From: Oscillospiraceae bacterium
Lineage (GTDB): Bacteria; Bacillota; Clostridia; Oscillospirales; Acutalibacteraceae
Assembly (NCBI GenBank): GCA_015066175.1
Contig: SVOW01000013.1
Location: forward strand, 38,562 to 102,561
Direction: 5' to 3'
DNA: 64,000 nucleotides
In this document: piece after piece, positions 7,031 through 36,252 of the stretch
How positions within the stretch are numbered: position 1 is the first letter of the stretch
Layout of the letters: every line of letters starts with the position of its first letter
The notes under the pieces: generated by a model
What the model was told of the DNA's origin: nothing
Seen by the model: only the letters and a program-made list of their open reading frames with translations
Database searches by the model: none
Position numbers and translations under genes: made by a program

Positions 7031-7110
7031 TAAGTTAATTAAAAATATTATTAAAAATAAACTTTGAAACCGGTTGTTATAAAAATCTATAGAAAGGAAA
7101 AGACGATATT

Positions 7111-7287
7111 ATGAATAACGAAAAAGTTTATATGACTATCGCCGAAGCCTCAAAAGCAAGTGGCATTAGTCAACACACAATCAGATGTCTTGTAAAATCA
7201 GGGCAGATTGCTCATGTAATGACAGGCATCAAATATCTTATTAATTATCCGAAAATGATGTCATTTTTCGAATCTCTTGAAAATTAA
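7111..7287 (+). CDS. Excisionase-type HTH DNA-binding protein (58 aa)
   Basis: Below the ORF-track size cutoff. Reads MNNEKVYMTIAEASKASGISQHTIRCLVKSGQIAHVMTGIKYLINYPKMMSFFESLEN. The RBS is GAAAGGAAAAG. It lies immediately upstream of the integrase gene. Confidence 0.7.
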   Translation: MNNEKVYMTIAEASKASGISQHTIRCLVKSGQIAHVMTGIKYLINYPKMMSFFESLEN

Positions 7288-7307
7288 TATCAGAAAGGAT
7301 AATGAAA

Positions 7308-14641: not shown

Positions 14642-15685
14642 TTATCTGTTAACCCAGAATCTCGGCTCATCGCCGTCAAAGAATTTGTATGCTTCCTTGA
14701 GCATCATTGCAGGAGAATCTGAATAAGAGTTGATTGTATCACCACCGCGGTGGTTTGTAAGAGTTACATTATCAAGACCTAAAAGAGGACAAGTTTCGTC
14801 AATAGGCTCTTTATCGAAAACGTCAATTGCTGCACCCATAATGCTGCCTGTTCTGAGGGCATTTGCAAGTGCGTTGTAGTCAACCATGTATGAACGTGCT
14901 GTGTTGATGAAATATGCTGTGTCTTTCATCATGCCGAATTCACGTGCACCAAGGAGAATTGATTTCTTTGAAAGTCTTGCGTGAAGTGACACAATATCAC
15001 TTTCACGGAGAAGTTCATTAAGAGGAACAAATTTTGCGATATTCTTGTTGATGCCTGAATAATTTTCAAACATATCGTTGATGAGAATTTTGCAGTTGAA
15101 ACTGACAAGCTTATCATAAAGAAGTCTGCCTACAGTTCCGAAGCCGATAATACCAACTGTCATATCGCTCATTTCTCTGATTTTCTTTTCAGTGTTGGGA
15201 TATTTTTCTCTCCACTGTCCGTTCTGGATTGCCATTGCTGAACGTGAAATATTTCTCACTTCGTTGAGCATAAGGCCAACTGTATATTCTGCCACAGCGT
15301 TTGCATTATGTGCAGGGTTGAGAAGAACAGCAATCCCCTTTTCAGATGCAGCCTTGATATCAAGGTTTTCGTGACCGCCTCTGTTGCAGAGAATAAGTTT
15401 GAGATTTTTTGCTTTTTCAAGAAGAGTTTTAGTTACAGGGCAAAGGTGCACCATAAGGATTTCTGCATCTTCAATTGCTTCTTCAAGTCCTTCGGGGAGA
15501 GCAAGTGTTTCAAAGCCACCTGTTTCGATTATTTTAACAACATTTCTCATTTCGTGCCTGTCGTGTGAGCCGAAATAGAAATGTTTTACATCAAGCATTA
15601 AATCTTCATAACCTCTTTCGAGGCCTGCTTTCATCATTTCAGAAGTGATGAAAATATCGCCTACTGCTACGCACTTTTTAACCAT
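14642..15685 (-). CDS. D-isomer-specific 2-hydroxyacid dehydrogenase family, NAD-binding
   Basis: Rossmann motif VGIIGFGTVGRLL. Also SLHARL, AAIDVF..EP and LTNHRGG (catalytic R/E/H pattern). Confidence 0.8.
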   Translation of the reverse strand: MVKKCVAVGDIFITSEMMKAGLERGYEDLMLDVKHFYFGSHDRHEMRNVVKIIETGGFETLALPEGLEEAIEDAEILMVHLCPVTKTLLEKAKNLKLILCNRGGHENLDIKAASEKGIAVLLNPAHNANAVAEYTVGLMLNEVRNISRSAMAIQNGQWREKYPNTEKKIREMSDMTVGIIGFGTVGRLLYDKLVSFNCKILINDMFENYSGINKNIAKFVPLNELLRESDIVSLHARLSKKSILLGAREFGMMKDTAYFINTARSYMVDYNALANALRTGSIMGAAIDVFDKEPIDETCPLLGLDNVTLTNHRGGDTINSYSDSPAMMLKEAYKFFDGDEPRFWVNR

Positions 15686-15698
15686 AAACTAAACCTCC

Positions 15699-16415
15699 TT
15701 ACTTAATCTGTCCGTCTTGAATCATCATATTGCCGAGAAGCATATCAAATTCAGTTGTGATTTTGAAATTAGTTCTTTCACCTTTAACGATACCAACGCT
15801 CAAATCGTGCTCGAGATACATTCTGCCCGCTTCCATATAAGCGTCAATTTCTTCCTGAGTGAGTTTTTCGTAAAGGTCGTCAAACTGCTTAATTCTAAAA
15901 GTCTGGGGACCCTGATCAAGAAAAACTGTGTCACGGTTGGGAACAACTGTGCTCTGCTTGCCGTCTTCGGCAATAAGAACGGTGTCGATTGTGGGAACAG
16001 AAGTTGTTACCATATCATATTCTTTTGCGATTATGTAGTTATCGTTGATAATTCTTGAAGAAACGAAAGGTCTTGCACAGTCGTGAATGAGCATCATATC
16101 GTCTTGTGTAAGCTCTTCGCCTGCCAATTCAATGCTTTTCTTTACAATGTTTACCATTGAAAGGAATCTTGATGTGCCGCCGTGAATGATTTCAACACGT
16201 GAAGTGTCAATTTTATATTCTTCAAGCATATTTCTGCAATAATCTTCCCACTGGGGGTTCATTGCAAGAATAACTTTATCAATACATTCTTCTTTAAGAA
16301 ATGTATTGAGAGTTCTTATAATAATTGGTGTGTCACCGATTTTGAGGAACTGCTTGGGAACGGAACTTTCCATTCTTGAGCCGATGCCTCCTGCAAGGAT
16401 ACCTGCAAAATTCAT
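15699..16415 (-). CDS. IspD/TarI-family cytidylyltransferase (sugar-alcohol-phosphate type)
   Basis: N-terminal AGILAGGIGSRMESSVPKQFLKIGDTPII. The length and overall pattern match the IspD/TarI family. Confidence 0.8.
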   Translation of the reverse strand: MNFAGILAGGIGSRMESSVPKQFLKIGDTPIIIRTLNTFLKEECIDKVILAMNPQWEDYCRNMLEEYKIDTSRVEIIHGGTSRFLSMVNIVKKSIELAGEELTQDDMMLIHDCARPFVSSRIINDNYIIAKEYDMVTTSVPTIDTVLIAEDGKQSTVVPNRDTVFLDQGPQTFRIKQFDDLYEKLTQEEIDAYMEAGRMYLEHDLSVGIVKGERTNFKITTEFDMLLGNMMIQDGQIK

Positions 16416-16434
16416 TTTAATCAGCCTTCCTTTT

Positions 16435-18384
16435 TCAGATTTCTGTTTCGAATAATTCGCCTTTGATATTTACTTCTCTGAACTGTGCTTTTTCTTTGTT
16501 TTCAAAGATGTATTCGCCCATATCGATTCTTGCAAAGTTATGAGGTGCAGAACGCTTTGAGTAAGTGGGCAGAGTCATATAATTAGGTCCGTAAGCATAG
16601 TTAAGATAGCCTGTGTAATCAACAGGGATAGGTGCTTTTATGCCGTCAAAATCAACATAGTGCACTTCTTCAAGTCCGTCAATGGGCATTGCACCATCAA
16701 TAAGCTTTTTGCCTACGCTGTCAATAAGATATTTTGCATTTTTCTTGTTTTTATAGAAAGAAACGCCAAGTTCAAACAAGCCGTGATATACGCAATAAGG
16801 GATAAGTCTGAGGAAAGGAAGTGCAAGCTTTGAAGCTCTGTAATGGAAATTTTTACGCGGAGCATTATACCAACGCACTTCAAGAGCTTTTGTGATTGCA
16901 TAAAGGTAAGCCATATGCAATTTCTGCAGGAATTTATTGTTGCTTGTTTTGTCATAAACGAGAATATCGATGAAGATACCATCTTCAACACTGTTTTTGC
17001 TTGAATAGTTTGTTGAGAAATATGTACCTTTAAGACGCACTTTATCAATAGTGTAATGGCTTCCTGTGCCGTTTGTGGGGCAGGAATAAACAAACTGCTC
17101 GCCCATTTCTTCCTGGAAAACTTTACGGAATTTATTGTAATCTTCTCTGAGCATACCGATATCAAGGTCATCATCCCATGCGATGCTCATACCGTTTCTT
17201 ACTGCACCGAGAAGTGAGCCGCCTGCAAGGAAATACTGAATATTGTGCTTTTTGCAGATGCGTTCAATTTCGTTAAGAATATAAACTTCAAGGTCTTTAA
17301 GACGCTGGAGTTTGCCTTCGTAAAATGCAATAAGAGGCTCAATATCATATTCAACTTCTGAAAGATAGCAGACTGCGTGATAAATTGCAGTTGTTTGATT
17401 GCAGAAGGGTTTATAACTTGTTTTTCTGAATTTAAGGGAACCGAGAGACTTGCATTCTTTTTCTTCCAAATCGCCGATGTCGCATTTAAGTCGGAGAAAA
17501 TCTCTACATTTTGAATGAATTGCAAACTTGATTGTGGCTGCGTTTGTGGTATAGCTTGCCACATTGTAGGTGTGACCTTCTTTCACTTTGTAAAGAGCGA
17601 AAACAAGCGACGGAATAACATCGCGGATATAAGTCATAGTGAAATCAGAAGCATAGTCTTCCTTTGTGATTTCAACACACTGCTTTCTGAAAATATCTCT
17701 GATAGTTTCGTGCAGGTCATATGCAGGCATATGCTGTTTGTCAGGTGCAAAAACATTATCATAACGCAGAAGTGAAACTGAAATGTTTTCATCTCTCACT
17801 GCCTGACGGCATCTTTTTTCAAGGCTTGCATAAAAGCTGAAATCAGCCTTTGCTTCTGATGAATATTCTTCGATAAAATAGTTATATTCTCTTTCAGCAA
17901 GGTGATCAATCCCCTGAGGAATTGAGGGCATAAGGGGAAGCAAAGCGCCCATAACAACGCGTGCAGAATTGTTTTTCGCAAAACTGAACACCAAATCAAG
18001 AGAGTTGATGATTTTTTCTTCGTTTTTCTTTTCGTCACAGTTAACGAAGCAGATAACGCATGACCTTTCTTTTCTGCCGTTTTTAATGCAGGCAAAAGAT
18101 TGGAGCGCTATTTCTTCAACAACATTATCAGGGTTTGAAAAATATTCTGTCAACACAGGTGTTTTTTCACAAAGAGGCACAAAATAAGCCTTACCCTGAA
18201 AATAAACTGATTTCTGTGCGATAAGCCCCATTGCCTGAACAAGGTATTCCGACACAAAACTATCATCACAAACAAAATAATATTTATCGTAAAATTTCTT
18301 CTTTTCAAGAAAAACACGTGTTAAAACTTTGTCCACTGACGTGGCAGTCATTTCAATTTCGTCTGCAATTATCAAACTGTTCAT
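16435..18384 (-). CDS. LicD-family phosphotransferase fused to a ~350-aa N-terminal domain of unclear function
   Basis: The C-terminal half has YFLAGGSLLGAVRNGMSIAWDDDLDIGMLREDY, the LicD DxD core. The N-terminal half has no clear cofactor motif. Confidence 0.75.
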   Translation of the reverse strand: MNSLIIADEIEMTATSVDKVLTRVFLEKKKFYDKYYFVCDDSFVSEYLVQAMGLIAQKSVYFQGKAYFVPLCEKTPVLTEYFSNPDNVVEEIALQSFACIKNGRKERSCVICFVNCDEKKNEEKIINSLDLVFSFAKNNSARVVMGALLPLMPSIPQGIDHLAEREYNYFIEEYSSEAKADFSFYASLEKRCRQAVRDENISVSLLRYDNVFAPDKQHMPAYDLHETIRDIFRKQCVEITKEDYASDFTMTYIRDVIPSLVFALYKVKEGHTYNVASYTTNAATIKFAIHSKCRDFLRLKCDIGDLEEKECKSLGSLKFRKTSYKPFCNQTTAIYHAVCYLSEVEYDIEPLIAFYEGKLQRLKDLEVYILNEIERICKKHNIQYFLAGGSLLGAVRNGMSIAWDDDLDIGMLREDYNKFRKVFQEEMGEQFVYSCPTNGTGSHYTIDKVRLKGTYFSTNYSSKNSVEDGIFIDILVYDKTSNNKFLQKLHMAYLYAITKALEVRWYNAPRKNFHYRASKLALPFLRLIPYCVYHGLFELGVSFYKNKKNAKYLIDSVGKKLIDGAMPIDGLEEVHYVDFDGIKAPIPVDYTGYLNYAYGPNYMTLPTYSKRSAPHNFARIDMGEYIFENKEKAQFREVNIKGELFETEI

Positions 18385-18473: not shown

Positions 18474-18506
18474 CAACACCCGATCCGTTATAAGACTCGG
18501 GTGTTG
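18474..18506 (-). terminator. Terminator ending the oxidoreductase operon
   Basis: CAACACCCG/CGGGTGTTG hairpin followed by a T-run on the minus strand. Confidence 0.7.
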
Positions 18507-18521
18507 GTAGATTTTAAATTA

Positions 18522-19058
18522 TTATGCGTTGTAACCGATTTCGATTGCACCGAGGTTAACTTCCAGCATATCCTGATGTCTTGCTGAAACAACGTGTGCA
18601 AGTGCTTCTCTGAGATTATCGTAAGAAACAGCATCACATTCTTTCATAAGTTTACCTGCAATAATCATGTTAGCAAGCTTGGGAATGTTGTTTTCGTTAG
18701 CAAGCTGTGTTGCGGGAAGATAGAAAACTTCAACATCGTCTCTTTCTACTTTTCTGCCGATAAGAGAACTGTCGAGAATGATTTTACCACCTTTTTTAAC
18801 TGAAGCTTCGTACTTATCAAGTGACGGAAGATTCATTGCAACAAGGATATCGGGTTCGTCAATGATGGGAGAACCGATGGGGTCATCGCTGATGATAACG
18901 CTGCAGTTTGCAGTGCCGCCACGCATTTCGGGGCCGTATGAGGGAAGCCAGCTTACCTGCTTGCCTTCGTCAAGGCCTTTGTATGCCAAGAATTTACCTA
19001 CGAACAGAACGCCCTGTCCGCCGAATCCTGCAAAGAGGATGCTTGATGATTTACTCAT
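18522..19058 (-). CDS. 2-oxoacid:ferredoxin oxidoreductase, gamma subunit
   Basis: ILFAGFGGQGVLFVGKFLA. A 4-nt ATGA overlap with the beta subunit gene. Confidence 0.9.
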   Translation of the reverse strand: MSKSSSILFAGFGGQGVLFVGKFLAYKGLDEGKQVSWLPSYGPEMRGGTANCSVIISDDPIGSPIIDEPDILVAMNLPSLDKYEASVKKGGKIILDSSLIGRKVERDDVEVFYLPATQLANENNIPKLANMIIAGKLMKECDAVSYDNLREALAHVVSARHQDMLEVNLGAIEIGYNA

Positions 19059-19807
19059 TTTGTTTCCTCCTCTGCATAGATATCTTTATAAACGCCCAAG
19101 GGATAGTAGGGCATCATATTTTCTTCAAGCCATGTGAGTGCTTTTTCAGGTGTTACACCCCAGTTTGTGGGACAAGTTGAAAGCACTTCAACAAGTGAGA
19201 AGCCTTTGCCGTCAATCTGATTCTGGAATGCTTTTTTGATTGCTTTCTTTGCTTTGTTGATGTTTTTAACGTTGTTTACTGCAACTCTTTCGATGTAAGC
19301 AGCACCATCAACATTTGAAAGAAGTTCTGCAACTTTAACGGGATAACCTGCAACGTTTACATCTCTGCCGTAAGGTGAAGTCTGTGTAACCTGACCGGGA
19401 AGAGTTGTGGGAGCCATCTGACCGCCTGTCATACCGTAAATTGCATTATTTACAAAGATAACTGTGATATTTTCACGTCTTGCTGCTGAATGAACAGTTT
19501 CCGCAGTACCGATAGCTGCAAGGTCGCCGTCACCCTGGTATGTAAATACAACCTTTGAGGGGTCAGCACGTTTGATACCTGTTGCAACTGCAGGAGCACG
19601 TCCGTGAGCAGCCTGAATCATATCACAACCGAAATAGTTATATGCCATAACTGAGCAACCAACAGGTGCTACACCGATTGATTTACCTTCAATTCCAAGT
19701 TCATCCATTACCTCAGCAACAAGACGGTGGATAATACCGTGAGTACATCCGGGGCAGTAATGAAGAGGAGCATCTGTAAGTGCATGGGGTTTATCAAAAA
19801 CTACCAT
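19055..19807 (-). CDS. 2-oxoacid:ferredoxin oxidoreductase, beta (TPP-binding) subunit
   Basis: CPGCTHG, GDGD and the TPP-binding pattern GGQMAPTT. Confidence 0.9.
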   Translation of the reverse strand: MVVFDKPHALTDAPLHYCPGCTHGIIHRLVAEVMDELGIEGKSIGVAPVGCSVMAYNYFGCDMIQAAHGRAPAVATGIKRADPSKVVFTYQGDGDLAAIGTAETVHSAARRENITVIFVNNAIYGMTGGQMAPTTLPGQVTQTSPYGRDVNVAGYPVKVAELLSNVDGAAYIERVAVNNVKNINKAKKAIKKAFQNQIDGKGFSLVEVLSTCPTNWGVTPEKALTWLEENMMPYYPLGVYKDIYAEEETK

Positions 19808-20874
19808 TATTTGTCGCCTCCTTTGTTTGCTTCAATAATTGCGTTAAGAACCTGGTCAGGAGAAGGAATCATACCACCTGCTCTGTTGCAGAGTGATACA
19901 GGTTTCTTGCATTCTGTTGCAAGTTTAACGTCTTCAATCATCTGTCCCATTGACATTTCTACGCTGACAAAAGCTTTAACTTTGTCTGCTGCAGCTCTGA
20001 ATGCCTTTTTGGGGAAGGGCCAGAGTGTGATAGGTCTGATAAGACCAACTTTAATGCCCTGCTTTCTTGCTTCAAGAACTGCGTTCTTTGAAACACGTGA
20101 TGCAATACCGAATGCTGCAACGCAGATTTCTGCATCTTCCATCATAAATTCTTCGCAGAGTGCTTCGTTTTCTTCGATTGCTTTGTATTTTTCAAAACGT
20201 TCAAAGTTGAATTTTTCAAGTTCTTCGGGAACAAGTGAAAGAGAGTTTACAATGTTGTGTTCTCTTTCCATATTTGTGCCTGTAAGTGCCCAGGGTTTTT
20301 CGTATGTTTCAACTTCGCCCATATCAAGGCTTACAGGTTCCATCATCTGACCCATTGTACCGTCTGCAAGAATCATTGTGGGCATACGGTATTTGTCAGC
20401 AAGATTGAATGCTTTGAATGTAAGAGAAGCCATTTCCTGAACTGATGCAGGAGCAAGTACGATAAGGTGATAGTCACCATGACCGCTGCCTCTTGTTGCC
20501 TGGAAATAGTCTGACTGTGAGGGCTGAATACCACCGAGACCGGGGCCACCACGCTGCACGTTAACGATAAGTGCGGGAAGGTCGCAACCTGCGATGTATG
20601 AAATACCTTCACTCTTAAGTGAAATTCCGGGGCTTGAAGAAGAAGTCATTACTCTCTTACCTGTTGCAGCAACACCATAAACCATATTGATTGCTGCGAT
20701 TTCGCTTTCTGCCTGAAGGAAAACACCGCCCTCGATTTTGGGCATACGTTTTGCCATATAGGCAGCAACCTCTGTCTGAGGAGTTATAGGATAACCGAAG
20801 TAATGGCGGCAACCTGCCATAATAGCAGCTTCAGCAATTGCTTCGTTACCTTTCATCAAAACTTTTTCTGCCAT
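19807..20874 (-). CDS. 2-oxoacid:ferredoxin oxidoreductase, alpha subunit
   Basis: MKGNEAIAEAAIMAGCRHYFGYPITPQTE. ATG 20874 follows AGAGGTG. Confidence 0.9.
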   Translation of the reverse strand: MAEKVLMKGNEAIAEAAIMAGCRHYFGYPITPQTEVAAYMAKRMPKIEGGVFLQAESEIAAINMVYGVAATGKRVMTSSSSPGISLKSEGISYIAGCDLPALIVNVQRGGPGLGGIQPSQSDYFQATRGSGHGDYHLIVLAPASVQEMASLTFKAFNLADKYRMPTMILADGTMGQMMEPVSLDMGEVETYEKPWALTGTNMEREHNIVNSLSLVPEELEKFNFERFEKYKAIEENEALCEEFMMEDAEICVAAFGIASRVSKNAVLEARKQGIKVGLIRPITLWPFPKKAFRAAADKVKAFVSVEMSMGQMIEDVKLATECKKPVSLCNRAGGMIPSPDQVLNAIIEANKGGDK

Positions 20875-20879
20875 TATTC

Positions 20880-21086
20880 TCACCTCTCAACCTTAATTAC
20901 ACAATCAGGACACATTGTTGCGCAGAAAGCACAACCTACACATTTCTCACTGTCTGTAATTTCAGCGGGATGATGTCCTTTAACATTGATTTTATCTTTG
21001 GAAAGGGCAATAATCTTTTTGGGACATGCCACAACACAAAGACCGCAACCTTTACACAAATCTGTTGCGAAAGTTACCTTTGCCAT
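20880..21086 (-). CDS. 2-oxoacid:ferredoxin oxidoreductase, delta subunit (2x[4Fe-4S] ferredoxin)
   Basis: CKGCGLCVVACP and CVGCAFCATMCP. Confidence 0.9.
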   Translation of the reverse strand: MAKVTFATDLCKGCGLCVVACPKKIIALSKDKINVKGHHPAEITDSEKCVGCAFCATMCPDCVIKVER

Positions 21087-21098
21087 ACTATCTCTCCC

Positions 21099-21767
21099 TT
21101 AATCATATTTTCTTACGTGTTGCAAATTGAGGGGCATTATATTTTCTATTCTGCCTGACAATTCGTTGAATAACGTACTTTTGACTGTTGTAAGTTTTAC
21201 AGGTAAACCTGTAAGTGATGAAATTTCTTCGGCATATGAAACAGAAGAAAGCACATCTTCCGCAGTTGTTTCTTCGCCGAGATTTGAGTTGTTTACAATG
21301 GCTGTGAATTTAATTCCGCCTGCTGATTCAACCTCTCTCATCACTTCGACCGTACTCTCAGCATCGGGAGTAAGCGGTCTGAATTTATTGATTACAAAAA
21401 ACATTTCGTAGTCGTTTTCTTCGATAATTGACGGTGCATATCTGCCGAGAGCCAACGCTCCGCGGTCGTCACCGCCGATATCCATAACGGCGAAAGTTTC
21501 TTTGTTATCGATAATTGAATACATATCCTGAGGAATTGCAGGTAAATCAACGTTTGAGTTTGCGTAGACAGATGAAATTAATTTAATTCCCCTCTTCTGA
21601 AGCTCATCCTCACTGTCTTTTGCACGATAGTAGGGATTCACTATATCAAGGTCTGCCACGCACACATCAATACCTGCGTCTTTTATCTTTACTGCATAGT
21701 TTACGGCAATGTTTGTTTTACCTGAGCCGTAGTGACCTGCAAAAAGAGTTATACGTTTAAAGTTCAT
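21099..21767 (-). CDS. P-loop NTPase (MinD/ParA-like fold), function unknown
   Basis: MNFKRITLFAGHYGSGKTNIAVNYA. The ORF-track N-terminal extension to 21962 reads through a repeat element and is rejected. Confidence 0.7.
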   Translation of the reverse strand: MNFKRITLFAGHYGSGKTNIAVNYAVKIKDAGIDVCVADLDIVNPYYRAKDSEDELQKRGIKLISSVYANSNVDLPAIPQDMYSIIDNKETFAVMDIGGDDRGALALGRYAPSIIEENDYEMFFVINKFRPLTPDAESTVEVMREVESAGGIKFTAIVNNSNLGEETTAEDVLSSVSYAEEISSLTGLPVKLTTVKSTLFNELSGRIENIMPLNLQHVRKYD

Positions 21768-21964
21768 TTTGTTCACCGGATTTTCAAGTACAGCAGGAGC
21801 AAATCTCCGCCATACAATAGTTATACTTAATGCAAAGTGCATAGTGCATAATGCAGAGTTTATGGTGGGCAAAGCCCACACCCAAAATAACAAGCGTCTC
21901 AGACCCGAAATTCTGCATTTTGCATTCTGCATTGAAAATGTCATATTACCGATTTCACGCAATC
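21768..21964. repeat. Intergenic repeat element rich in TGCAT/GTGCAT heptad-like units, with a GTGGGCAAAGCCCAC hairpin
   Basis: Contains TGCAAAGTGCATAGTGCATAATGCAGAG and TGCATTTTGCATTCTGCATTG. The GCGTCTCAGACCCGAAA segment resembles GCGTCGCAGACCCGAAA in the 156-bp element at 53898-54053. Confidence 0.6.
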
Positions 21965-24253
21965 TTAAAGTTTGTTTCTCTGAATTTTGCCGCTTACTGT
22001 CTTGGGCAATTCATCCTTGAACACAACAATTCTGGGATATTTATAAGGTGCTGTGTGTTCTTTAACATATTTCTGGATTTCTTTCTTAAGTTCTTCTGTG
22101 CCTTCTGTACCCTTTGTAAGAACGATACTTGCCTTAACAACCTGACCTCTTACTTCGTCGGGTGCAGCAGAAACGCCACATTCAAGAACATAAGGAAGTT
22201 CCATAATAACGTTTTCAATTTCGAATGGTCCGATACGGTAGCCTGATGATTTGATAACGTCATCAACACGACCAACATACCAGTAGAATCCGTCTTCATC
22301 TCGCCATGCAGTATCGCCTGTGTGATAAAGTCCGTCGTGCCATGCTTCGTTTGTTTTTTCTTCATCAAGGTAGTAACCTTTGAAGAGACCGCAAGGAACT
22401 TTTTCAGATGTGCGGATAACAATTTCACCTGTTTCACCGTCTGCAACAGGGTTGCCGTCGGGGTCAACAATGTCAACATCGTAAAGCGGTACAGGTTTAC
22501 CCATTGAACCGAGTCTGTGCTCTGAGCCGAAAAGGTTACCGATAACAAGTGTTGTTTCTGACTGACCGAAGCCTTCCATAACCTGAAGTCCTGTAAGGTT
22601 TTCGAATTGTCTGAATACTTCGGGGTTAAGAGCCTCACCTGCGATAGTTGCATGTTCAATACTTGAAACATCGTATTTTGTAAGGTCTTCTTTAATCATC
22701 ATTCTGTACATCGTAGGCGGTGCGCAGAATGTTGTAATTTTGTATTTTGCAAACATAGGCAAGATATCTGAAGCATCAAAACGATCAAAGTCGTAAACAA
22801 ATACTGCTGCTTCGCAGAGCCACTGACCGTAGAGTTTACCCCACATTGATTTTGCCCAGCCTGTGTCTGAAATTGTAAGATGAAGTCCCTGGGGATTTAC
22901 ACAGTGCCAATAGTTGGCTGTAATAAAGTGACCCAAAGGATATTTGAATGAATGAGCAGCGATTTTGGGATAACCTGTTGTGCCTGATGTGAAGAACATA
23001 AGCATATAATCGTCACCGCAGGGTGTATCGTCTGTTCTTTCAAATACGTTGCTGTAGAGTTTGAATTCTTCGTCAAAGTTTCTCCAGCCTTCACGCTCTG
23101 CACCAACCATAATTTTAATCTGAAGTGAAGGTGCATTCTTTTCAGCAAGTTCAACCTGTTCATATGTACCGTCGTCTGCAGTACAAACAATAGCTTTAAC
23201 ATCTGCTGCATTGAAACGGTATTCAAAGTCGTGGTCTTTAAGCTGATGAGTTGCAGGAATTACAACTGCGCCAAGTTTGTGAAGACCGAGCACTGCAAAC
23301 CAGAACTGATAATGACGTTTTAAAACGAGCATTACCTTGTCACCTTTCTTAATGCCAAGTGACTTGAAGTAGTTTGCTGCCTGTGCAGAATATTCCATCA
23401 TATCCTTGAAAGTGAATATTCTTTCTTTTTTATCTTTTGAAACGTGAAGCATTGCCATTTTGTCGGGCAACTTCTTCGCGATTCCGTCAACGATATCAAA
23501 AGCAAAGTTGAATTTATCTTCGTTTTCAAATGAAAGTGAAAGAAGTGCGCCTCTTTCATCTTCTTTGGGATGAATAAAGTTATGATAAATTCTTCTGTTT
23601 GTTTTAACTCTCTTGGGTGCTGAAGTCAATTCAGTTTTAGCCTGTTCAAGTTCGGGAATAGGCTCACCTGTGGGGTTAAGAACCATTGCGTAGAATTCGC
23701 AATCTCTGCCACCTACTGCAGTCATACCGTGAGGTGTTGCACTATCGTAATAGATGCTGTCGCCTTCGTTGAGGATTGCAGTATGGTTGCCGACCTGAAC
23801 TTTCAAAGAACCACTGATAACGATATCACATTCCTGACCGTCATGTGAAGTCAGTTCAAGTGTTTTATCATCGTCACCTTCGTTATATTCGCACTTAACG
23901 TAAAGGGGTTCTGCGATTCTGTTTACAAAAGACGGAGCAAGGTTGTAATATTTAAGACCGTGAGCTTCCTGAATTTCCTGACCGCGACCTTTTCGTGTTA
24001 CAACGTAAGATTTAAGTGTGGGGCTGACACCTTCGATGATGTCGGTAACGTCAACCTTGAATGCCTGTGAACATCTGTAAAGGAAAGCGAAAGAAAGGTC
24101 GCGTCTTCCCTCTTCGCAGGATATGTACTCTTCAAGAGTTACACCTGTTTTCACAGCCATTTCAGCTTGTGTAAGACCTTCGATTTCACGCAGTTCGCGG
24201 ATACGTTCAGCCATTTCCATAATTTTAATGTCGAGTGTGCCTGTTTCTTTCAT
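21965..24253 (-). CDS. Fusion protein: XRE-type HTH + cupin + AMP-forming acyl-CoA synthetase (paralog 1)
   Basis: ATG 24253 lies 8 nt after AAGGAG. HTH: IRELREIEGLTQAEMAVKTGVTLEEYISCEEG. Cupin: GDSIYYDSATPHGM. AMP-binding: FFTSGTTGYPK, YHTGD and SGKIQRNKL. Confidence 0.85.
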   Translation of the reverse strand: MKETGTLDIKIMEMAERIRELREIEGLTQAEMAVKTGVTLEEYISCEEGRRDLSFAFLYRCSQAFKVDVTDIIEGVSPTLKSYVVTRKGRGQEIQEAHGLKYYNLAPSFVNRIAEPLYVKCEYNEGDDDKTLELTSHDGQECDIVISGSLKVQVGNHTAILNEGDSIYYDSATPHGMTAVGGRDCEFYAMVLNPTGEPIPELEQAKTELTSAPKRVKTNRRIYHNFIHPKEDERGALLSLSFENEDKFNFAFDIVDGIAKKLPDKMAMLHVSKDKKERIFTFKDMMEYSAQAANYFKSLGIKKGDKVMLVLKRHYQFWFAVLGLHKLGAVVIPATHQLKDHDFEYRFNAADVKAIVCTADDGTYEQVELAEKNAPSLQIKIMVGAEREGWRNFDEEFKLYSNVFERTDDTPCGDDYMLMFFTSGTTGYPKIAAHSFKYPLGHFITANYWHCVNPQGLHLTISDTGWAKSMWGKLYGQWLCEAAVFVYDFDRFDASDILPMFAKYKITTFCAPPTMYRMMIKEDLTKYDVSSIEHATIAGEALNPEVFRQFENLTGLQVMEGFGQSETTLVIGNLFGSEHRLGSMGKPVPLYDVDIVDPDGNPVADGETGEIVIRTSEKVPCGLFKGYYLDEEKTNEAWHDGLYHTGDTAWRDEDGFYWYVGRVDDVIKSSGYRIGPFEIENVIMELPYVLECGVSAAPDEVRGQVVKASIVLTKGTEGTEELKKEIQKYVKEHTAPYKYPRIVVFKDELPKTVSGKIQRNKL

Positions 24254-24560
24254 ACAAAGTTCTCCTTTTTTCTTCGGGGAGCTCAAACAAAAAGCCCGTC
24301 CCAAAGACTTAATCCTTTGAGACGAGCACCAATATCTGTTGCCCGCGGTACCACTCAAATTGCGTTTTTAAACGCCACTCAGGTTCAAACAAACCTTATG
24401 CATTAACGCAGCAATCACGGAAAAGTTCTACTCATATTTACATACTTTCTTCTTTTCAGCTCCGGAGCTACAAATTGTCGTTTCTCTTTACCGCACTTAC
24501 ACCAGACGGCGGCTCTCTTCGAAAGGGATAGCGACAACACTCTCCATCAAAGCCATTAAC
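24254..24560 (-). promoter_or_regulatory. T-box riboswitch leader 1 (hand-read specifier GUA, Val)
   Basis: Minus strand has stem I elements GAUGGAG (K-turn), AGAGAG (AG bulge) and GGUGUAA (distal loop). The T-box sequence AAUUUGAGUGGUACCGCGG is at plus-strand 24343-24361. A terminator at 24294-24327 is followed by UUUUUGUUUG. The specifier loop UUUGUAG lies next to the CUCC helix, with GUA at plus-strand 24469-24471. Confidence 0.8.
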
Positions 24561-24566
24561 ATTAGA

Positions 24567-24595
24567 ATTATATCAAAGTTTTAAATGTTTGTCAA
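24567..24595 (-). promoter_or_regulatory. Consensus promoter for T-box leader 1
   Basis: Minus strand reads TTGACA, a 17-nt spacer, then TATAAT. Confidence 0.7.
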
Positions 24596-24690
24596 TAAAA
24601 TTTATTGTTTAATGTTTTGGCAATATTTTGCCTGATATTATGAATTCTGCATAAATTGTGTACAGCAGAGAAAAAGCCCTGCCATATGAA

Positions 24691-24843
24691 CGCTAAATTA
24701 TAATTTATCTTGTAGATTAAATTTAATATCGTAGGGAACGGCGGTTTCCGACGTTCCGCAAAAAGCAAACATAAATTGGCGGTTTGTCGGCAAGCGCCAA
24801 ACCCTACAATGTTAAAATTAATTGCACGCTAAATTATAATTTA
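24691..24843. repeat. REP doublet module bounded by CGCTAAATTATAATTTA direct repeats
   Basis: Forward hairpin GTAGGGAACGGCGGTTTCCGACGTTCC at 24731-24757. An inverted partner at 24778-24810 has the reverse complement GTAGGGTTTGGCGCTTGCCGACAAACC. The 17-bp CGCTAAATTATAATTTA occurs at 24691-24707 and 24827-24843. The module is nearly identical to 34267-34407. Confidence 0.85.
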
Positions 24844-27104
24844 TTTCTTTGAATCTTACCGCTGATAGTTTTAGGCAGTTCGTCTTTGAAAACAACGATT
24901 CTGGGATATTTATAGGGTGCTGTTTTCTCTTTGACGTAGTTCTGGATTTCTTTTTTAAGTTCTTCTGTGCCTTCTGTGCCTTTAGTAAGAACAATGCTTG
25001 CCTTGACTACCTGACCGCGAAGTTCATCGGGTGCTGCAGAAACGCCACATTCAAGAACATAGGGAAGTTCCATAATAACGTTTTCGATTTCGAATGGTCC
25101 GATACGGTAGCCTGAAGACTTGATAACATCGTCAGCACGGCCCACATACCAGAAGTAGCCATCTTCATCTCGCCATGCAACGTCGCCTGTATGATACATA
25201 CCGTCGTGCCATGCTTCTTTTGTTTTTTCTTCATCGTTATGATAACCGAGGAACAATCCGTTGGGAACATATTTATCAGTACGTACAACTATTTCACCGT
25301 TTTCACCAACACCTACGGGGTTGCCGTCGGGGTCTACGATGTCGATATCATAAAGGGGAATGGGTTTACCCATTGAGCCTACTTTGGGCTGCATACCTGC
25401 AAGGTTTGCGATTGTAAGAGTTGTTTCTGTCTGACCGAAGCCTTCCATGATACGAAGACCTGTACTCTTTTCGAATTGTTTGAAAACTTCAGGGTTAAGT
25501 GCTTCACCTGCTGTTGTTGCGTGAACAATTGAGCTTAAATCGTACTGTGAAATATCCTGCTTGATTAACATTCTGTACATTGTGGGAGGTGCACAGAAGG
25601 TTGTGATGTGATATTTTGCAAACATAGGAAGAATATCTGCAGCATTGAAACGGTCAAAGTCATAAACAAACACTGCACCTTCGCAGAGCCACTGACCGTA
25701 GAGTTTACCCCAGAGTGCTTTACCCCAGCCCGTATCGGAAATTGTGAAGTGAACGCCATCTTCACGTACACAATGCCAATATTTTGCAGTGATAAAGTGA
25801 CCGAGAGGATATTTATGCGAATGTGCTGCAATTTTGGGATAGCCTGTTGTACCTGATGTAAAGAACATAAGCATGGGGTCGTTACCGCAGGCTGTGTCTT
25901 CTTCTCTTTCGTATTTACGGGTAAAGAGAACACTCTCATCATCAAAGTTGTGCCAGCCTTCTCTGTGACCTCCAACGATGATTTTCGTCCGGAGTGAAGG
26001 TGAATTCTTTGCTGCCATATCAACCTGTTCAGGTGTGTTATCAGTTGCAGTACAAACGATTGCTTTAACATCTGCTGCGTTGAAACGATATTCAAAATCG
26101 TGGTCTTTAAGCTGATGTGTTGCAGGAATTACAATTGCGCCAAGTTTGTGAAGACCGAGAATTGACATCCAGAACTGATAATGACGCTTGAGAACAAGCA
26201 TAACCTTGTCGCCTTTTTTGATACCCAATGATTTGAAATAGTTTGCAGCCTGTGCAGAACCGCGCTTCATATCGTTGAAAGTGAATCTTCTTTCTGTTTT
26301 ATCAATGCCGACGTGAATCATTGCAAGTTTATCGGGGTTCTTATCAGCAATAGCATCAACAACGTCAAATGCAAAGTTGAATTTATCGTCATCTGTAAAA
26401 GAAATTTCCTGAAGAACTCCGTTTTCATCTTCTGTTGTGTGAATGAATTTTTCACAGGTGAGATTTTTAGTAGTTCTTGCAGTAACAATGCTTGAAAGGA
26501 TTTCTTCTTCCTCAACATCTTCGTTACCTGCAAAAACAACTGCGAGGAAAGTACAGTCTTCACCGCCTACGGCAATCATACCGTGAGGCTCTGATGAATT
26601 GTAGAAAATACTGTCACCTTCGCGGAGAACTTCAGTATTGTCACCAATCTGCACTTTAAGAGTACCACTCAGAACCATATCAAATTCCTGACCTGAGTGA
26701 GTTGTTGTGTGGATAGGTTTTTCCTGCTGTTCAGCTGAATATTCATATTTAACAAAGTAAGGCTCACCGAGTTTTTTCTTGAATCTGGGAGCAAGGTTTT
26801 TGATTTCAATGCCATCTTCACTTGCAGTTACCTGGCCTTTGCCTTTTCTTGTAACTGTGTAAGAAGTAAGATTTGCACTCTGACCTTCAAGAATATCTGC
26901 AAGTTCAATTCCGAAAGCGAGTGAACACTTATGAATGAAAGTAAAGGGCAAATCTGTTTCACCCGCTTCATAAGTCTGATACAGTTCTGCAGAAATGTCA
27001 GTTTTATCAGCCATTTCTTCTACAGAATAGCCTGCGTCAAGACGCATCAGTCTGATTCTCCTGACGATTTCCATAAGTTGTTTGTCTGATGAATGATTTT
27101 CCAT
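24834..27104 (-). CDS. Fusion protein: XRE-type HTH + cupin + AMP-forming acyl-CoA synthetase (paralog 2)
   Basis: Same architecture as paralog 1, with long identical stretches in the synthetase part. ATG 27104 lies 8 nt after GGAGG; ATG 27110 is an alternative. The stop codon lies inside an AAATTATAATTT palindrome. Confidence 0.85.
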   Translation of the reverse strand: MENHSSDKQLMEIVRRIRLMRLDAGYSVEEMADKTDISAELYQTYEAGETDLPFTFIHKCSLAFGIELADILEGQSANLTSYTVTRKGKGQVTASEDGIEIKNLAPRFKKKLGEPYFVKYEYSAEQQEKPIHTTTHSGQEFDMVLSGTLKVQIGDNTEVLREGDSIFYNSSEPHGMIAVGGEDCTFLAVVFAGNEDVEEEEILSSIVTARTTKNLTCEKFIHTTEDENGVLQEISFTDDDKFNFAFDVVDAIADKNPDKLAMIHVGIDKTERRFTFNDMKRGSAQAANYFKSLGIKKGDKVMLVLKRHYQFWMSILGLHKLGAIVIPATHQLKDHDFEYRFNAADVKAIVCTATDNTPEQVDMAAKNSPSLRTKIIVGGHREGWHNFDDESVLFTRKYEREEDTACGNDPMLMFFTSGTTGYPKIAAHSHKYPLGHFITAKYWHCVREDGVHFTISDTGWGKALWGKLYGQWLCEGAVFVYDFDRFNAADILPMFAKYHITTFCAPPTMYRMLIKQDISQYDLSSIVHATTAGEALNPEVFKQFEKSTGLRIMEGFGQTETTLTIANLAGMQPKVGSMGKPIPLYDIDIVDPDGNPVGVGENGEIVVRTDKYVPNGLFLGYHNDEEKTKEAWHDGMYHTGDVAWRDEDGYFWYVGRADDVIKSSGYRIGPFEIENVIMELPYVLECGVSAAPDELRGQVVKASIVLTKGTEGTEELKKEIQNYVKEKTAPYKYPRIVVFKDELPKTISGKIQRNKL

Positions 27105-27425
27105 TTTCATAACCTCCGATTGTAATGGGTCTGAAACTCTGAAGCAATAAAAAAGCCGCCTCAAAGCTTCTTTGAAAACTTTGAGACGGAATAAACTCAA
27201 TCCGCGGTACCACTCAAATTGCGCCACTTAAGACGCCCCTCTGCAGAGCCTATCAGCTCCTTCGCACTAACGCAGCGTACACGTAAGACACTACTCGGTT
27301 AACCTTTTGCATCTTCAGCTCGGAAGTGATAGGACCTGAAAAGCCACACTGCAGTTTCACACCAGCCAACTGCTCTCTGAAAGTCTGAACAAATCGTCCG
27401 TCTTCGTCATCGCTTTTAAAATATT
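27105..27425 (-). promoter_or_regulatory. T-box riboswitch leader 2 (hand-read specifier AUC, Ile)
   Basis: Minus strand has GCGAUGACGAAG (K-turn plus lower helix), AGAGAG and GGUGUGAAA. The 3' side reads CCUAUCA-CUUC-CGAGC, with AUC at plus-strand 27328-27330. The T-box sequence AAUUUGAGUGGUACCGCGG is at 27202-27220. A terminator at 27155-27189 is followed by CUUUUUUAUU. Confidence 0.8.
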
Positions 27426-27431
27426 GAAAAA

Positions 27432-27460
27432 ATTATAGCACTGTTTTCAGGGTGTGTCAA
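27432..27460 (-). promoter_or_regulatory. Consensus promoter for T-box leader 2
   Basis: Minus strand reads TTGACA, a 17-nt spacer, then TATAAT. Confidence 0.7.
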
Positions 27461-27478: not shown

Positions 27479-28576
27479 TTACACAAGAGTAAGAAGCAAA
27501 TTAATGCCAAGAAAAGCAATATTTACCAAAGTAAACACCAAAATATACTTTTTGACATTAATCCCCTCTTTTGCTACAAGTTTAAATGAAATAAGGCTTG
27601 CCATTGAAGCGATAAGTGTGCCTAAGCCCCCCAGGTTTACACCCACCAGCAAATCTTTAACATTATTTGTGAAATTCGAAAGAAGTATTGCCGCAGGTAC
27701 ATTAGAAAACACCTGACTTGAAATTATTCCTACGGCAATTTCTTTATCTGCAACAATACTTTTCAAGAATGTATTCACTGCGGGAATGTTGCCTAAATTG
27801 CCGATGAAAACAAACAGAAAAACAAATGTAAGCAAAAGGCTGTAGTCTATATTTCTAAGTACTTTTCTGTCAAAAACCAAAACAGAAACAAGTGTTATAC
27901 CTAAAAGCACAAGAAAATGCACAACTCTGAAAACACTTAAAAGTGCCACCACAAAAAGAACAGAATAGATAATTATTCTGACATCAAAACTAAACTCCGT
28001 TTTTTCGTTTGCTATTTCGATTTTTTCCTTGCCTGTGAAAAGTGCTGAAACAACAATAAGTGCAAGCGACAATCCGGCATAGGGAAGAATGGCAGAAAAG
28101 AAATCAAGCATACTCATTTCATATTTTGAAAAAAGATACAGATTCTGCGGATTGCCTATAGGTGTTGCCATACTGCCTAAGTTTGCAGCAACAGTTTCCA
28201 GTGTTATTAAAATTATTGCCTTGTCTTTTTTACCGATTAAATTAAGCATAATCAAAGTAAACGGCACAAAAGTTATGAGCGCCACATCGTTTGTGATGAG
28301 CATTGAAGAAAAGAAGCAGAGAAGACACAGCACAATGCTCAACGAAGAAAAACGTTTTACATATTTCAGGAGCTTTTCTGCAAGAATTTTAAACACACCG
28401 ATTTTGTTAAGCCCTGCAGTAACTGCCATTAAACTGAAAAGTAATACAAGGGTTTTGAAGTCGATATAATCAATATACCCTTTATTGGGCACGACTATAA
28501 AACAAGACGCAACTGCAAGAACAAAAGACAAAACAAGCACAATTTCACTTTTAAGGAATTTTTTTACATTCTGCAT
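27479..28576 (-). CDS. Anion permease of the ArsB/NhaD / SLC13-like superfamily
   Basis: Polytopic membrane protein. Contains LGSMATPIGNPQNLYLFSKY. Confidence 0.65.
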   Translation of the reverse strand: MQNVKKFLKSEIVLVLSFVLAVASCFIVVPNKGYIDYIDFKTLVLLFSLMAVTAGLNKIGVFKILAEKLLKYVKRFSSLSIVLCLLCFFSSMLITNDVALITFVPFTLIMLNLIGKKDKAIILITLETVAANLGSMATPIGNPQNLYLFSKYEMSMLDFFSAILPYAGLSLALIVVSALFTGKEKIEIANEKTEFSFDVRIIIYSVLFVVALLSVFRVVHFLVLLGITLVSVLVFDRKVLRNIDYSLLLTFVFLFVFIGNLGNIPAVNTFLKSIVADKEIAVGIISSQVFSNVPAAILLSNFTNNVKDLLVGVNLGGLGTLIASMASLISFKLVAKEGINVKKYILVFTLVNIAFLGINLLLTLV

Positions 28577-34480: not shown

Positions 34481-36232
34481 TTAGTCATTGTAAAGTGACT
34501 TTTTAACATAAGATGTGTGAAGAATATCGTGAGCCTTGTGGCTTCCGGGTTCACCGAAGAATTCATCATAAATCATCTTGATTGCAGGGTTGTCCTGGCT
34601 CTTTCTCAAGGGCAGGTTCTTATCTGCTTCGTAGATAGCCTGAGCACGAAGGCCCTTAAGATCAACGAAGTTACGAACTGATGCAGGCTGGATGGGCTGA
34701 CCGCCGCCGTTTACACAACCGCCGGGACAAGCCATGATTTCGATAAACTGATAATCACAAGTACCTGCTTTAACTTTTTCCATAACTTCCTGAGCATTCT
34801 TGATACCGCTTACTGCAGCAACCTTGAGTTCAAGACCGCCAACTGTGTAAGTTGCTTCTTTGATGCCCTGTGTGCCTCTTACTTCTGTGAACTCAACACT
34901 GTCAAGTTCTTTACCTGTAAGAACTTCTGCAGCATAACGAAGAGCAGCTTCCATAACGCCGCCTGTTGCGCCGAAGATAACGCCTGCGCCTGTGCCTTCG
35001 CCGAGAGGATTATCAAACTGTTCGTCGGGAAGAAGGTCGAAGTTGATACCTGCAGTTTTGATCATACTTGCAAGTTCACGTGTTGTGATTGAGTAATCAA
35101 CATCTGCAAAACCTGCTGCTGACTGGTCATCACGTTTATTTTCGCCTTTTTTAGCTGTACAAGGCATAACTGCAACAACAACAATCTTTGCAGGGTCAAT
35201 GTTCATCTTCTGTGCATACCATGTTTTCATAACTGCACCGAACATCTGCTGAGGTGATTTACAGCTTGAAAGATTATCAATCTGTTCGGGATAGTAATGT
35301 TCGCAGAAATTAACCCAACCGGGTGAACATGATGTGATAAGGGGAAGTTTGCCGCCTTCTTTGATTCTGTGAAGAAGTTCTGTACCTTCTTCCATAATTG
35401 TAAGGTCAGCAGAGAAGTCTGTATCAAATACTTTATTGAAGCCAAGTCTGTGAAGAGCTGCAGCCATTTTACCTGTTACGTTTGTGCCTACTTTGTAACC
35501 GAAGCATTCACCGAGTGTAACACGGATTGAGGGAGCAGTGTTAACAATAACGAATTTATCAGGGTCGTTGATTGCATCAAATACAGCTTTTGTATCGTCT
35601 TTTTCATAAAGAGCACCTGTGGGGCAGTTAACAATACACTGACCACATTCTACGCAAGCGAAAGATGCAAGACCTTTTTCAAATGCAGAGCCGATGTGAG
35701 TATCGAAACCACGTGCGTTTGCACCGATAACACCAACATACTGGTTGTCACAAGCTGCAACACAACGACGGCAAAGGATACATTTGTTGTTATCTCTTAC
35801 CATGTGAGTAGCTGATGTGTCGATTTCCCAAACAGGTTTTTCGCCATCAAAGCGGCTTTCATCATCAACGCCATATTCAAGGCAGAGTTTCTGAAGTTCA
35901 CAAGAACCGCTTCTTACACAAGAGAGACATTTTCTTTCGTGAGTTGAAAGAAGAAGCTCAAGTGTAGTTTTGCGTGATTCGTGAACTCTGGGTGTGTTTG
36001 TGAAAACTTCCATACCCTCGTTTACGGGGAATACGCAAGCTGAAACAAGACGGTTGCCTCTGGGGCCACCAACTTCTACCATACAAAAACGGCAAGCACC
36101 GATTTCGTTCATTTCTTTAAGGTAGCAAAGTGTGGGGATTTCGATACCTGCATATCTTGCAGCTTCGAGAATTGTTGTACCGCCGGGCACGCTTAAGGGC
36201 ATGCCGTTGATTTTAATATTTACCATTTCCAT
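34481..36232 (-). CDS. hydA: [FeFe] hydrogenase catalytic subunit, bifurcating HydABC type
   Basis: N-terminal 2Fe-2S and 4Fe-4S domains. H-cluster motifs TSCSPGWV, MPCTAKKGE and EIMACPGGCVNGGGQP. ATG 36232 lies 8 nt after AAAGGAG. Confidence 0.92.
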   Translation of the reverse strand: MEMVNIKINGMPLSVPGGTTILEAARYAGIEIPTLCYLKEMNEIGACRFCMVEVGGPRGNRLVSACVFPVNEGMEVFTNTPRVHESRKTTLELLLSTHERKCLSCVRSGSCELQKLCLEYGVDDESRFDGEKPVWEIDTSATHMVRDNNKCILCRRCVAACDNQYVGVIGANARGFDTHIGSAFEKGLASFACVECGQCIVNCPTGALYEKDDTKAVFDAINDPDKFVIVNTAPSIRVTLGECFGYKVGTNVTGKMAAALHRLGFNKVFDTDFSADLTIMEEGTELLHRIKEGGKLPLITSCSPGWVNFCEHYYPEQIDNLSSCKSPQQMFGAVMKTWYAQKMNIDPAKIVVVAVMPCTAKKGENKRDDQSAAGFADVDYSITTRELASMIKTAGINFDLLPDEQFDNPLGEGTGAGVIFGATGGVMEAALRYAAEVLTGKELDSVEFTEVRGTQGIKEATYTVGGLELKVAAVSGIKNAQEVMEKVKAGTCDYQFIEIMACPGGCVNGGGQPIQPASVRNFVDLKGLRAQAIYEADKNLPLRKSQDNPAIKMIYDEFFGEPGSHKAHDILHTSYVKKSLYND

Positions 36233-36252
36233 TGTTGGCACACTCCTTTCAA

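Follow-up and report, generated by a model that had tools for sequence, protein, structure and literature searches.

Why should a bacterium place genes for the activation of fatty acids, together with those for a 2-oxoacid:ferredoxin oxidoreductase, under T-box leaders, RNA elements that switch on when their cognate tRNA is uncharged? The question is raised by a stretch of 64,000 nucleotides from an Oscillospiraceae bacterium (contig SVOW01000013.1; the whole of this stretch is referred to as the window), in which two transcription units lie on the minus strand and run from position 27460 to position 18474. An earlier note on this DNA had described two consensus promoters, each followed by a T-box leader and an acyl-CoA synthetase gene, with the downstream unit continuing through a P-loop NTPase and a four-subunit oxidoreductase to a terminator, and all of these elements were found on the minus strand where it had placed them. 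We suggest that the locus specifies a tRNA-gated salvage pathway in which branched short-chain fatty acids would be converted to isoleucine (Ile) and valine (Val), and we assign this reading a probability of about 0.78. The chemical route that the earlier note had proposed, from isobutyrate and 2-methylbutyrate by way of acyl-CoA and 2-oxoacid to Val and Ile, is strongly supported by comparison with Macs, MbcS, VorB, and IlvE; the evidence throughout is that of sequence, predicted structure, and conservation among relatives.

The control elements of the two units are as follows.

27432..27460, minus strand: promoter of the Ile unit, TTGACA-17-TATAAT, 12/12 consensus, with TG before the -10 hexamer
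27179..27419, minus strand: T-box leader A, RF00230, 99.3 bits, E 1.2e-20, model positions 1-219 of 219
27330-27328, minus strand: specifier of leader A, AUC (Ile)
27214-27203, minus strand: T-box sequence of leader A, AGUGGUACCGCG
27146..27189, minus strand: terminator hairpin and U-run of T-box A, a 15-pair stem (27189-27156) and then CTTTTTTATT
24567..24595, minus strand: promoter of the Val unit, TTGACA-17-TATAAT, 12/12 consensus, with TG before the -10 hexamer
24315..24559, minus strand: T-box leader B, RF00230, 95.7 bits, E 9.5e-20, model positions 1-219 of 219
24471-24469, minus strand: specifier of leader B, GUA (Val)
24355-24344, minus strand: conserved T-box sequence of leader B
24284..24327, minus strand: terminator hairpin and U-run of T-box B, a 14-pair stem (24327-24294) and then TTTTTGTTTG

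Both promoters are thus perfect matches of the sigma-70 type, and among orthologous leaders a near-consensus promoter is present at the equivalent place in 41/44 Ile leaders, while TTGACA is kept in 63/68 Val leaders. In the covariance search, leaders A and B both scored above the RF00230 gathering score of 93 bits over the full model, and the Stem I of each contains the GAUGA...GAGC base of a kink-turn (K-turn) as well as the AGAGA and UGGUG motifs of the distal platform. Common to both leaders is AAUUUGAGUGGUACCGCG, comprising the T-box sequence and the UGGN bulge; the UGGU bulge presumably pairs with the A73 discriminator that we expect in tRNA-Ile and tRNA-Val. No tRNA gene is located within the 64-kb window. 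Because the terminator hairpin overlaps the 3' half of AAUUUGAGUGGUACCGCG, we classify the leaders as classical transcription-attenuation T-boxes, and folding, which had been suggested as a check, placed an attenuator hairpin in the minimum-free-energy (MFE) fold of each of them. By sequence and structure criteria, leaders A and B are transcriptional-class T-boxes.

For comparison, we used 80 related loci from species-representative genomes, out of at least 598 matching stretches. These loci belong mostly to Acutalibacteraceae, Oscillospiraceae, Ruminococcaceae, and Christensenellales, in genomes assembled from ruminant and human gut samples, and one of them (L001, from roe-deer rectum) is 98% identical to the window and collinear with it. 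A Stem I covariance model built from 42 leaders, which leader A matches with 84 bits, recovered 141 leaders in the window and the related loci. Across these 141 leaders, Stem I is 93.8% paired and compensatory changes are found at 18/19 pairs, a level that 0/500 shuffles reach and that no shifted register approaches. The specifiers, which we read from the cmscan alignment and the sequence and checked against the 141 aligned Stem I sequences, lie in both leaders immediately 5' to the four-pair helix that tops the K-turn. The Val and Ile readings given earlier proved to be correct and hold in all orthologous leaders: a Val codon is present in 75/75 leaders before a Val-type synthetase (GUA 71, GUC 3, GUG 1) and AUC in 44/44 leaders before an Ile-type synthetase, the pairing of specifier and paralog being strict in these 119 leaders. 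Leaders before a neighbouring LeuA-like gene carry leucine (Leu) codons in 19/19 cases (CUC 17, CUG 2). Synonymous changes of the specifier together with variable flanks are as selection on amino-acid identity predicts. We also observed that one clade of Ile leaders (L024, L032, L035, L037, L041, L048, L050, and L053) contains an extra conserved AAATATCACAAATAAAAGC between promoter and Stem I.

The two leaders precede paralogous genes, both of which encode an acyl-CoA synthetase with an N-terminal helix-turn-helix (HTH) and cupin module.

24834..27110, minus strand: Ile-type HTH-cupin-acyl-CoA synthetase, 758 aa (Pfam HTH_3, Cupin_2, AMP-binding, AMP-binding_C)
21965..24253, minus strand: Val-type HTH-cupin-acyl-CoA synthetase, 762 aa (Pfam HTH_19/HTH_3, Cupin_2, AMP-binding, AMP-binding_C)

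The earlier description of these proteins as AMP-forming synthetases stands in so far as the AMP-binding and AMP-binding_C domains are present (E 1e-66 and 1e-20), but the enzymes are not plain ones, and the N-terminal module had been overlooked. An ADP-forming synthetase, which open reading frames of ~800 aa had brought to mind, was rejected, the Pfam domain being AMP-binding and the long frames extending into the leaders. The catalytic domain is 53-56% identical to that of M. acetivorans Macs (PDB 3ETC), which is the closest solved synthetase; the Ile type reaches 56% and the Val type matches 3ETC with E 2.9e-186. Macs prefers 2-methylbutyrate, and its pocket is due to a Gly that replaces Trp416 of Acs and to an alternative Trp259 (PMC10455477). 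These Macs-type pocket residues are kept here, as the Gly of GFGQSET and the W of MWGKLYG, and are invariant among homologs. When 117 synthetases were grouped by the specifier of their own leader and compared by alignment column and by tree, one of the discriminating catalytic positions was the residue after the GW motif, where the Ile type shares the Gly of Macs and the Val type has Ala. This position probably corresponds to an acyl-pocket residue of Acs, in which case Ala would suit a smaller pocket for isobutyrate. We propose that the Ile-type synthetase is a candidate 2-methylbutyrate-CoA ligase and the Val-type synthetase a candidate isobutyrate-CoA ligase.

Downstream of the Val-type synthetase, the second unit ends with the oxidoreductase genes and a terminator.

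20880..21086, minus strand: oxidoreductase delta subunit, 68 aa, 2x[4Fe-4S] ferredoxin-like (Pfam Fer4 family; NCBIfam PorD_KorD and OGOR_delta below cut-off)
19807..20883, minus strand: oxidoreductase alpha subunit, VorB-type (Pfam POR_N, PFOR_II; NF005507 VorB, 546 bits versus a cut-off of 399)
19055..19807, minus strand: oxidoreductase beta subunit, thiamine diphosphate-binding (Pfam TPP_enzyme_C; PorB_KorB matches below cut-off)
18522..19058, minus strand: oxidoreductase gamma subunit (Pfam POR, E 9.5e-36)
18474..18506, minus strand: intrinsic terminator at the end of the Val unit, a perfect 10-bp stem CAACACCCGA/TCGGGTGTTG with a 13-nt loop, then CTTTTGTTTT

The Pfam domains on these four adjacent genes agree with the delta-alpha-beta-gamma oxidoreductase that had been proposed. 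With the VorB cut-off passed and all subunits encoded in the operon, the enzyme is, as judged from its sequence, of the four-subunit 2-oxoisovalerate:ferredoxin oxidoreductase (VOR) type. The stem, the loop, and the T-run of the terminator can be seen directly in the DNA; our automatic terminator scan, which is limited to loops of 8 nt, missed this element because its loop is longer than that.

The arrangement of these genes is conserved. In most of the 80 loci the layout is an Ile leader and its synthetase, a Val leader and its synthetase, the P-loop gene, and then VorDABG, and the gene string is carried by hundreds of species of Oscillospirales and Christensenellales of ruminant and human origin. 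A class IV branched-chain aminotransferase, IlvE (NF009897, 482 bits versus a cut-off of 307), is part of the string in ~39/80 loci, where it follows either the Val synthetase or VorG; the transamination step, which the earlier note had inferred, is thereby found encoded within the operon in these relatives. In four loci, the two synthetases stand back to back and the second lacks a Val leader; in L062 and L070 the pair follows an Ile leader, and no Ile leader was detected in L034, where the contig is cut, or in L060.

In the mechanism that we propose, uncharged tRNA-Ile(GAU) would pair with the AUC specifier of leader A and, via its free 3' end, with the UGGU bulge; this binding would stabilise the antiterminator, and the Ile-type synthetase would be transcribed. 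Uncharged tRNA-Val(UAC) at the GUA of leader B would likewise allow transcription of the second unit, from the Val-type synthetase through the P-loop gene to the four oxidoreductase subunits. The synthetases would use ATP to convert 2-methylbutyrate and isobutyrate to their CoA thioesters, from which the VorB-type oxidoreductase, operating in reverse with reduced ferredoxin and CO2, would form 2-oxo-3-methylvalerate and 2-oxoisovalerate, and a branched-chain aminotransferase, encoded elsewhere in this genome, would finish Ile and Val. Reductive carboxylation of branched acyl-CoAs has long been known from labelling in rumen bacteria and methanogens. In methanogens, branched acids go into the synthesis of Ile and Leu (PMC10658910).

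Because an AMP-forming synthetase is combined here with a starvation-induced T-box, we take the direction of the pathway to be anabolic. If it were catabolic, Val and Ile would be oxidised via aminotransferase and oxidoreductase to branched acyl-CoAs or acids, as in amino-acid fermentation, and the reversibility of 2-oxoacid:ferredoxin oxidoreductases, which have an oxidative role in Clostridium sporogenes and Pyrococcus, is in keeping with this. We nevertheless consider a catabolic function very improbable: T-box leaders respond to shortage of the amino acid by switching on, an AMP-forming synthetase pushes its reaction from acid to acyl-CoA and conserves no energy in reverse, and the ADP-forming synthetase, or the phosphotransacylase and kinase, of fermenters is absent here by Pfam and NCBIfam.

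Several observations weigh against amino-acid salvage as the function of the locus, and the first of them concern the synthetases. The best NCBIfam model for both is MbcS (NF047394), with scores of 450.6 and 450.0 bits that lie below its equivalog cut-off of 850 bits, so that they are relatives of MbcS and not members, and the names that NCBI gives to the synthetase family are generic (AMP-binding or cupin domain proteins only). The described role of MbcS is the supply of primers for branched-chain lipids (PMC10026030, PMC11167679). In addition, ~17 related loci consist of a lone Val-leader synthetase among unrelated neighbours, without an oxidoreductase nearby. Acyl-CoA being a natural branch point, the synthetases could serve lipid-primer salvage only, activating external branched acids mainly to isobutyryl-CoA and 2-methylbutyryl-CoA as primers of branched-chain fatty acids when Ile and Val, from which such primers normally come, are scarce, with amino acids not a product. 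This alternative appears unlikely to us: in most loci, the window among them, the Val leader also drives a VorB-type oxidoreductase, and in ~39/80 IlvE as well, and their co-transcription would be pointless, or even amino-acid-consuming, if primers were the sole goal. Moreover, every characterised T-box serves the supply of the cognate amino acid to its tRNA (PMC2494555).

A second group of such observations concerns substrates. The catalytic domains are 0.76-0.77 identical within the Ile and Val types and 0.72 between them, and the types do not separate; clean orthology of the catalytic domains was rejected, as a neighbour-joining tree rooted with Macs mixes the two. Same-genome paralogs are 0.755 identical overall and 0.889 in the C-terminal part, and because they are as alike as orthologs, we suggest that gene conversion has occurred between them. 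With catalytic domains that have barely diverged, separate substrate specificities of the paralogs are not assured. Similarly, the best models for beta, gamma, and delta are generic or of the 2-oxoglutarate type, and none of these three subunits reaches a subfamily-specific cut-off; for delta and beta, the highest scores are with 2-oxoglutarate oxidoreductase models. Macs-type enzymes are broad in what they adenylate, with acids from C3 to C8 (PMC10455477). All of this would suit an oxidoreductase for 2-oxoglutarate or pyruvate and synthetases for other short or medium acids, with the T-boxes linking a general carbon or redox function to Ile and Val status and no direct relation of precursor to product. 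We regard such a function as decidedly unlikely, given that alpha passes the VorB cut-off while every match of the 2-oxoglutarate type falls far short of its own, that relatives carry IlvE in the operon, that specifier and paralog are paired without exception, and that the residue after the GW motif differs between the types as described.

The remaining points against salvage concern the leaders and the organisation of the operon. The nucleotide 3' of AUC is C in 20/44 Ile leaders, versus the canonical purine. No aminotransferase gene is adjacent to the operon in the window or in the near-identical L001, where the following genes are found in its place.

14642-18384, minus strand: LicD (649 aa), IspD-like cytidylyltransferase, and D-2-hydroxyacid dehydrogenase, directly downstream of the operon

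Because these LicD-type cell-surface decoration genes occupy in both loci the position that ilvE has in relatives, the aminotransferase must be encoded elsewhere in the genome. Finally, the oxidoreductase lies only behind the Val leader, a feature on which the earlier note, otherwise accurate in its description of the operon, had not remarked. The automatic scan found no clear terminator between the Ile synthetase and the Val promoter, and with no evident terminator there, Ile-induced transcripts should run on to meet the terminator of the Val leader. Carboxylation under Ile-only starvation might come about by leakiness, by co-limitation, or through another oxidoreductase, all of which are possibilities. 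The spacer concerned (24596-24833, minus strand) contains two short hairpins without U-runs and a repeat of the last bases of the gene, AAATTATAATTTAGCG thus occurring twice, and it looks like the scar of the tandem duplication.

Amino-acid salvage remains our preferred reading, and the N-terminal module of the synthetases suggests that its control probably has a second layer.

26370-27110, minus strand: HTH-cupin module of the Ile-type synthetase, N-terminal ~245 aa
23513-24253, minus strand: HTH-cupin module of the Val-type synthetase, N-terminal ~245 aa

This module of ~245 residues consists of an XRE-type HTH and a Cupin_2 domain, both above the Pfam cut-offs, and the architecture of the synthetases is common to >8000 homologs. 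Among the 117 synthetases, 15 alignment columns discriminate between the classes, of which 12 lie in the module and 3 in the catalytic part. The module falls into two clades, each monophyletic and in agreement with the specifier (Ile 43/43, Val 74/74), with an identity of 0.61-0.64 within a clade and 0.45 between clades. Because the module, not the catalytic domain, tracks the specifier, we propose as the most economical reading that it is probably a branch-specific ligand sensor. In an AlphaFold2 (AF2) model, a five-helix XRE-like domain is followed by a cupin barrel, and Foldseek matched this model to the XRE-cupin regulator 1Y9Q and to the enzymes HppE, HEPD, and MPnS. His137, Glu141, and His175 of the module are invariant and align with the metal-site His and Glu residues of HppE. 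Against the PuuR equivalog model NF007408 the module scored 26 bits, below the cut-off of 211. We tentatively suggest, as an idea that may well prove wrong, that the ligand is one of the two amino acids themselves or else the matching 2-oxoacid or acid, perhaps bound at the His-Glu-His site, and that the module gates the enzyme or binds DNA. With respect to an operator for the HTH, no shared palindrome was found around 112 orthologous promoters (44 Ile, 68 Val), and a screen of 44 Ile, 68 Val, and 18 Leu leaders for k-mers and inverted repeats returned as common elements only the -35, the -10, and an A/T-rich upstream tract. In this second layer of control, the module would sense a branch-specific small molecule, whether the end-product amino acid, its 2-oxoacid, or its acid. 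If this is true, each salvage branch would be controlled twice, by tRNA charging at the level of RNA and by a small molecule at the level of protein, and the enzyme would act as a regulator as well, an arrangement like that of BirA within amino-acid salvage.

Between the Val-type synthetase and the oxidoreductase lie a structured spacer and the P-loop gene.

21768..21964, minus strand: structured spacer that separates the Val synthetase from the P-loop gene, with a long, imperfectly paired hairpin whose arms are rich in TGCA (MFE -56.1 kcal/mol, z -2.79)
21099..21767, minus strand: SIMIBI-class P-loop NTPase, 222 aa, Walker A GHYGSGKT (NCBI annotation hypothetical)

The P-loop NTPase that had been claimed at this place has both the Walker A motif and the SIMIBI fold. 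Its match to Pfam CbiA/ParA is weak (CbiA 24.6 bits, under the cut-off of 25.4), and it met no specific SIMIBI subfamily model. Its AF2 model has a predicted local distance difference test score of 84.8, and the best Foldseek matches were ATPase-type HypB (5AUQ/3VX3) and the signal recognition particle (SRP) GTPases FtsY and Ffh, with a probability of 1.0 and TM scores of 0.5-0.6. The gene is present in every related locus that has the oxidoreductase, and always between synthetase and oxidoreductase. We infer that the protein may be a maturation or assembly factor for the oxidoreductase with its iron-sulfur and thiamine diphosphate cofactors. A role as a NifH-like, ATP-driven donor of low-potential electrons was considered and rejected, since the protein has a single, unconserved Cys and its structural neighbours are of the HypB/SRP type. 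The structured spacer of 199 nt is present in a single copy in the window and is particular to this lineage, most related loci having only ~20-35 nt at this place; an inserted element is one possible explanation, a site of mRNA processing or stability another.

Other features lie near the operon, elsewhere in the window, or beside the cluster in relatives.

34481-38043, minus strand: adjacent genes for the large subunit of an [FeFe]-hydrogenase and a NuoF-like flavoprotein, arranged as in an electron-bifurcating HydABC

A hydrogenase of this electron-bifurcating type points to a ferredoxin-based anaerobe. Upstream of the Ile unit, a CitMHS-family transporter (27479-28576) was considered as a conserved uptake partner and rejected, as it recurs only in L001; the partners of the lone Val-leader synthetases were likewise set aside as unrelated (in L010 a CN hydrolase and dap genes, in L059 a NUDIX protein and a glycosyltransferase). 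In several relatives (L069:16760-21733; L024:346-5747, minus strand; L013, L022, L064, and L075), and not in the window, the cluster adjoins one more T-box, the third, whose specifier reads Leu. Its unit encodes a divergent LeuA-like protein (HMGL-like and LeuA_dimer domains; 254 bits versus the IPMS cut-off of 532), followed by an 836-aa fusion of a xylose-isomerase-like TIM barrel (AP_endonuc_2) to an acyl-CoA ligase, and then by an Amidohydro_2 protein. This gene set is unusual for leucine supply and may represent an undescribed leucine-related route. Gut-1 RNAs are a family known from gut metagenomes, and the window has a match to this family (RF01706) at 53953-54023 on the minus strand that barely reaches the gathering score (50.1 bits versus 50). 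At 5618-8540 on the plus strand, an AAA_25/RecA-like ATPase adjoins a phage-type integrase, and this region is probably an integrated mobile element.

For many anaerobes of the rumen and gut, isobutyrate, 2-methylbutyrate, and isovalerate are required or stimulatory, and these "isoacids" are given as feed additives. That isoacids are carboxylated to Val, Ile, and Leu was established by isotope work of the 1960s to 1980s, while the bacterial genes and their control stayed vague. The locus bears on this in two ways. Through its T-box specifier, each synthetase paralog comes labelled with the one amino acid to which it belongs, and the synthetase, the P-loop protein, VorDABG, and IlvE together make up a complete candidate gene set for isoacid use. 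This gene set makes an old question directly testable and could serve as a marker for isoacid dependence in metagenomes; in addition, it exposes an uncharacterised family of sensor-enzyme fusions with the >8000 members noted above. Literature searches agree with the earlier note that the gene set and its regulation are poorly defined: full-text searches, which left out most subscription journals, returned no link of T-boxes to acyl-CoA synthetases or ferredoxin oxidoreductases, and neither did a survey of T-box regulons (PMC2494555) or the paper on the T-box database (PMC7778990). The class of RNA is already known, as are the two enzyme families and the physiology; the regulon, the tandem Ile/Val design, and the sensor-enzyme fusion appear to be undescribed.

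How, then, does the locus compare with known systems? BirA, the biotin protein ligase and bio repressor, is an adenylate-forming enzyme with an N-terminal DNA-binding domain. Its sequence and fold are unrelated to those of the synthetases, and by analogy the similar layout could couple pathway flux to transcription here. XRE-cupin regulators (PuuR; V. cholerae 1Y9Q) and the Fe(II) enzymes HppE, HEPD, and MPnS combine an XRE-like domain with a cupin barrel as the module does, whereas here the module is fused to an adenylate-forming enzyme, and oxygen-dependent chemistry is unlikely in this anaerobe. Among curated families, the synthetases score best with MbcS of Staphylococcus aureus, an enzyme for the activation of 2-methylbutyrate and isobutyrate (PMC10026030), yet it belongs to a different orthologous group, feeds lipid primers, lacks the HTH-cupin module, and is not described as T-box controlled. 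Macs (3ETC) and the anabolic VOR of methanogens are alike in the catalytic domain and the VorB-type alpha subunit; in contrast to these, the genes here form an operon in Clostridia with riboswitch control and a dedicated P-loop protein, and the synthetases carry the extra HTH-cupin module. The control itself is similar to that of the T-box operons for branched-chain amino acid biosynthesis in Firmicutes, such as ilv-leu of Bacillus (PMC2494555), which belong to the same RF00230 class with a Stem I specifier, a T-box, and a competing terminator and antiterminator, and follow the same logic, in that uncharged cognate tRNA leads to the supply of that amino acid. The locus described here differs from these operons in that the genes under control would provide fatty-acid activation and reductive carboxylation instead of the acetolactate-synthase pathway, and in that tandem leaders of different specificity each stand before a paralog of their own.

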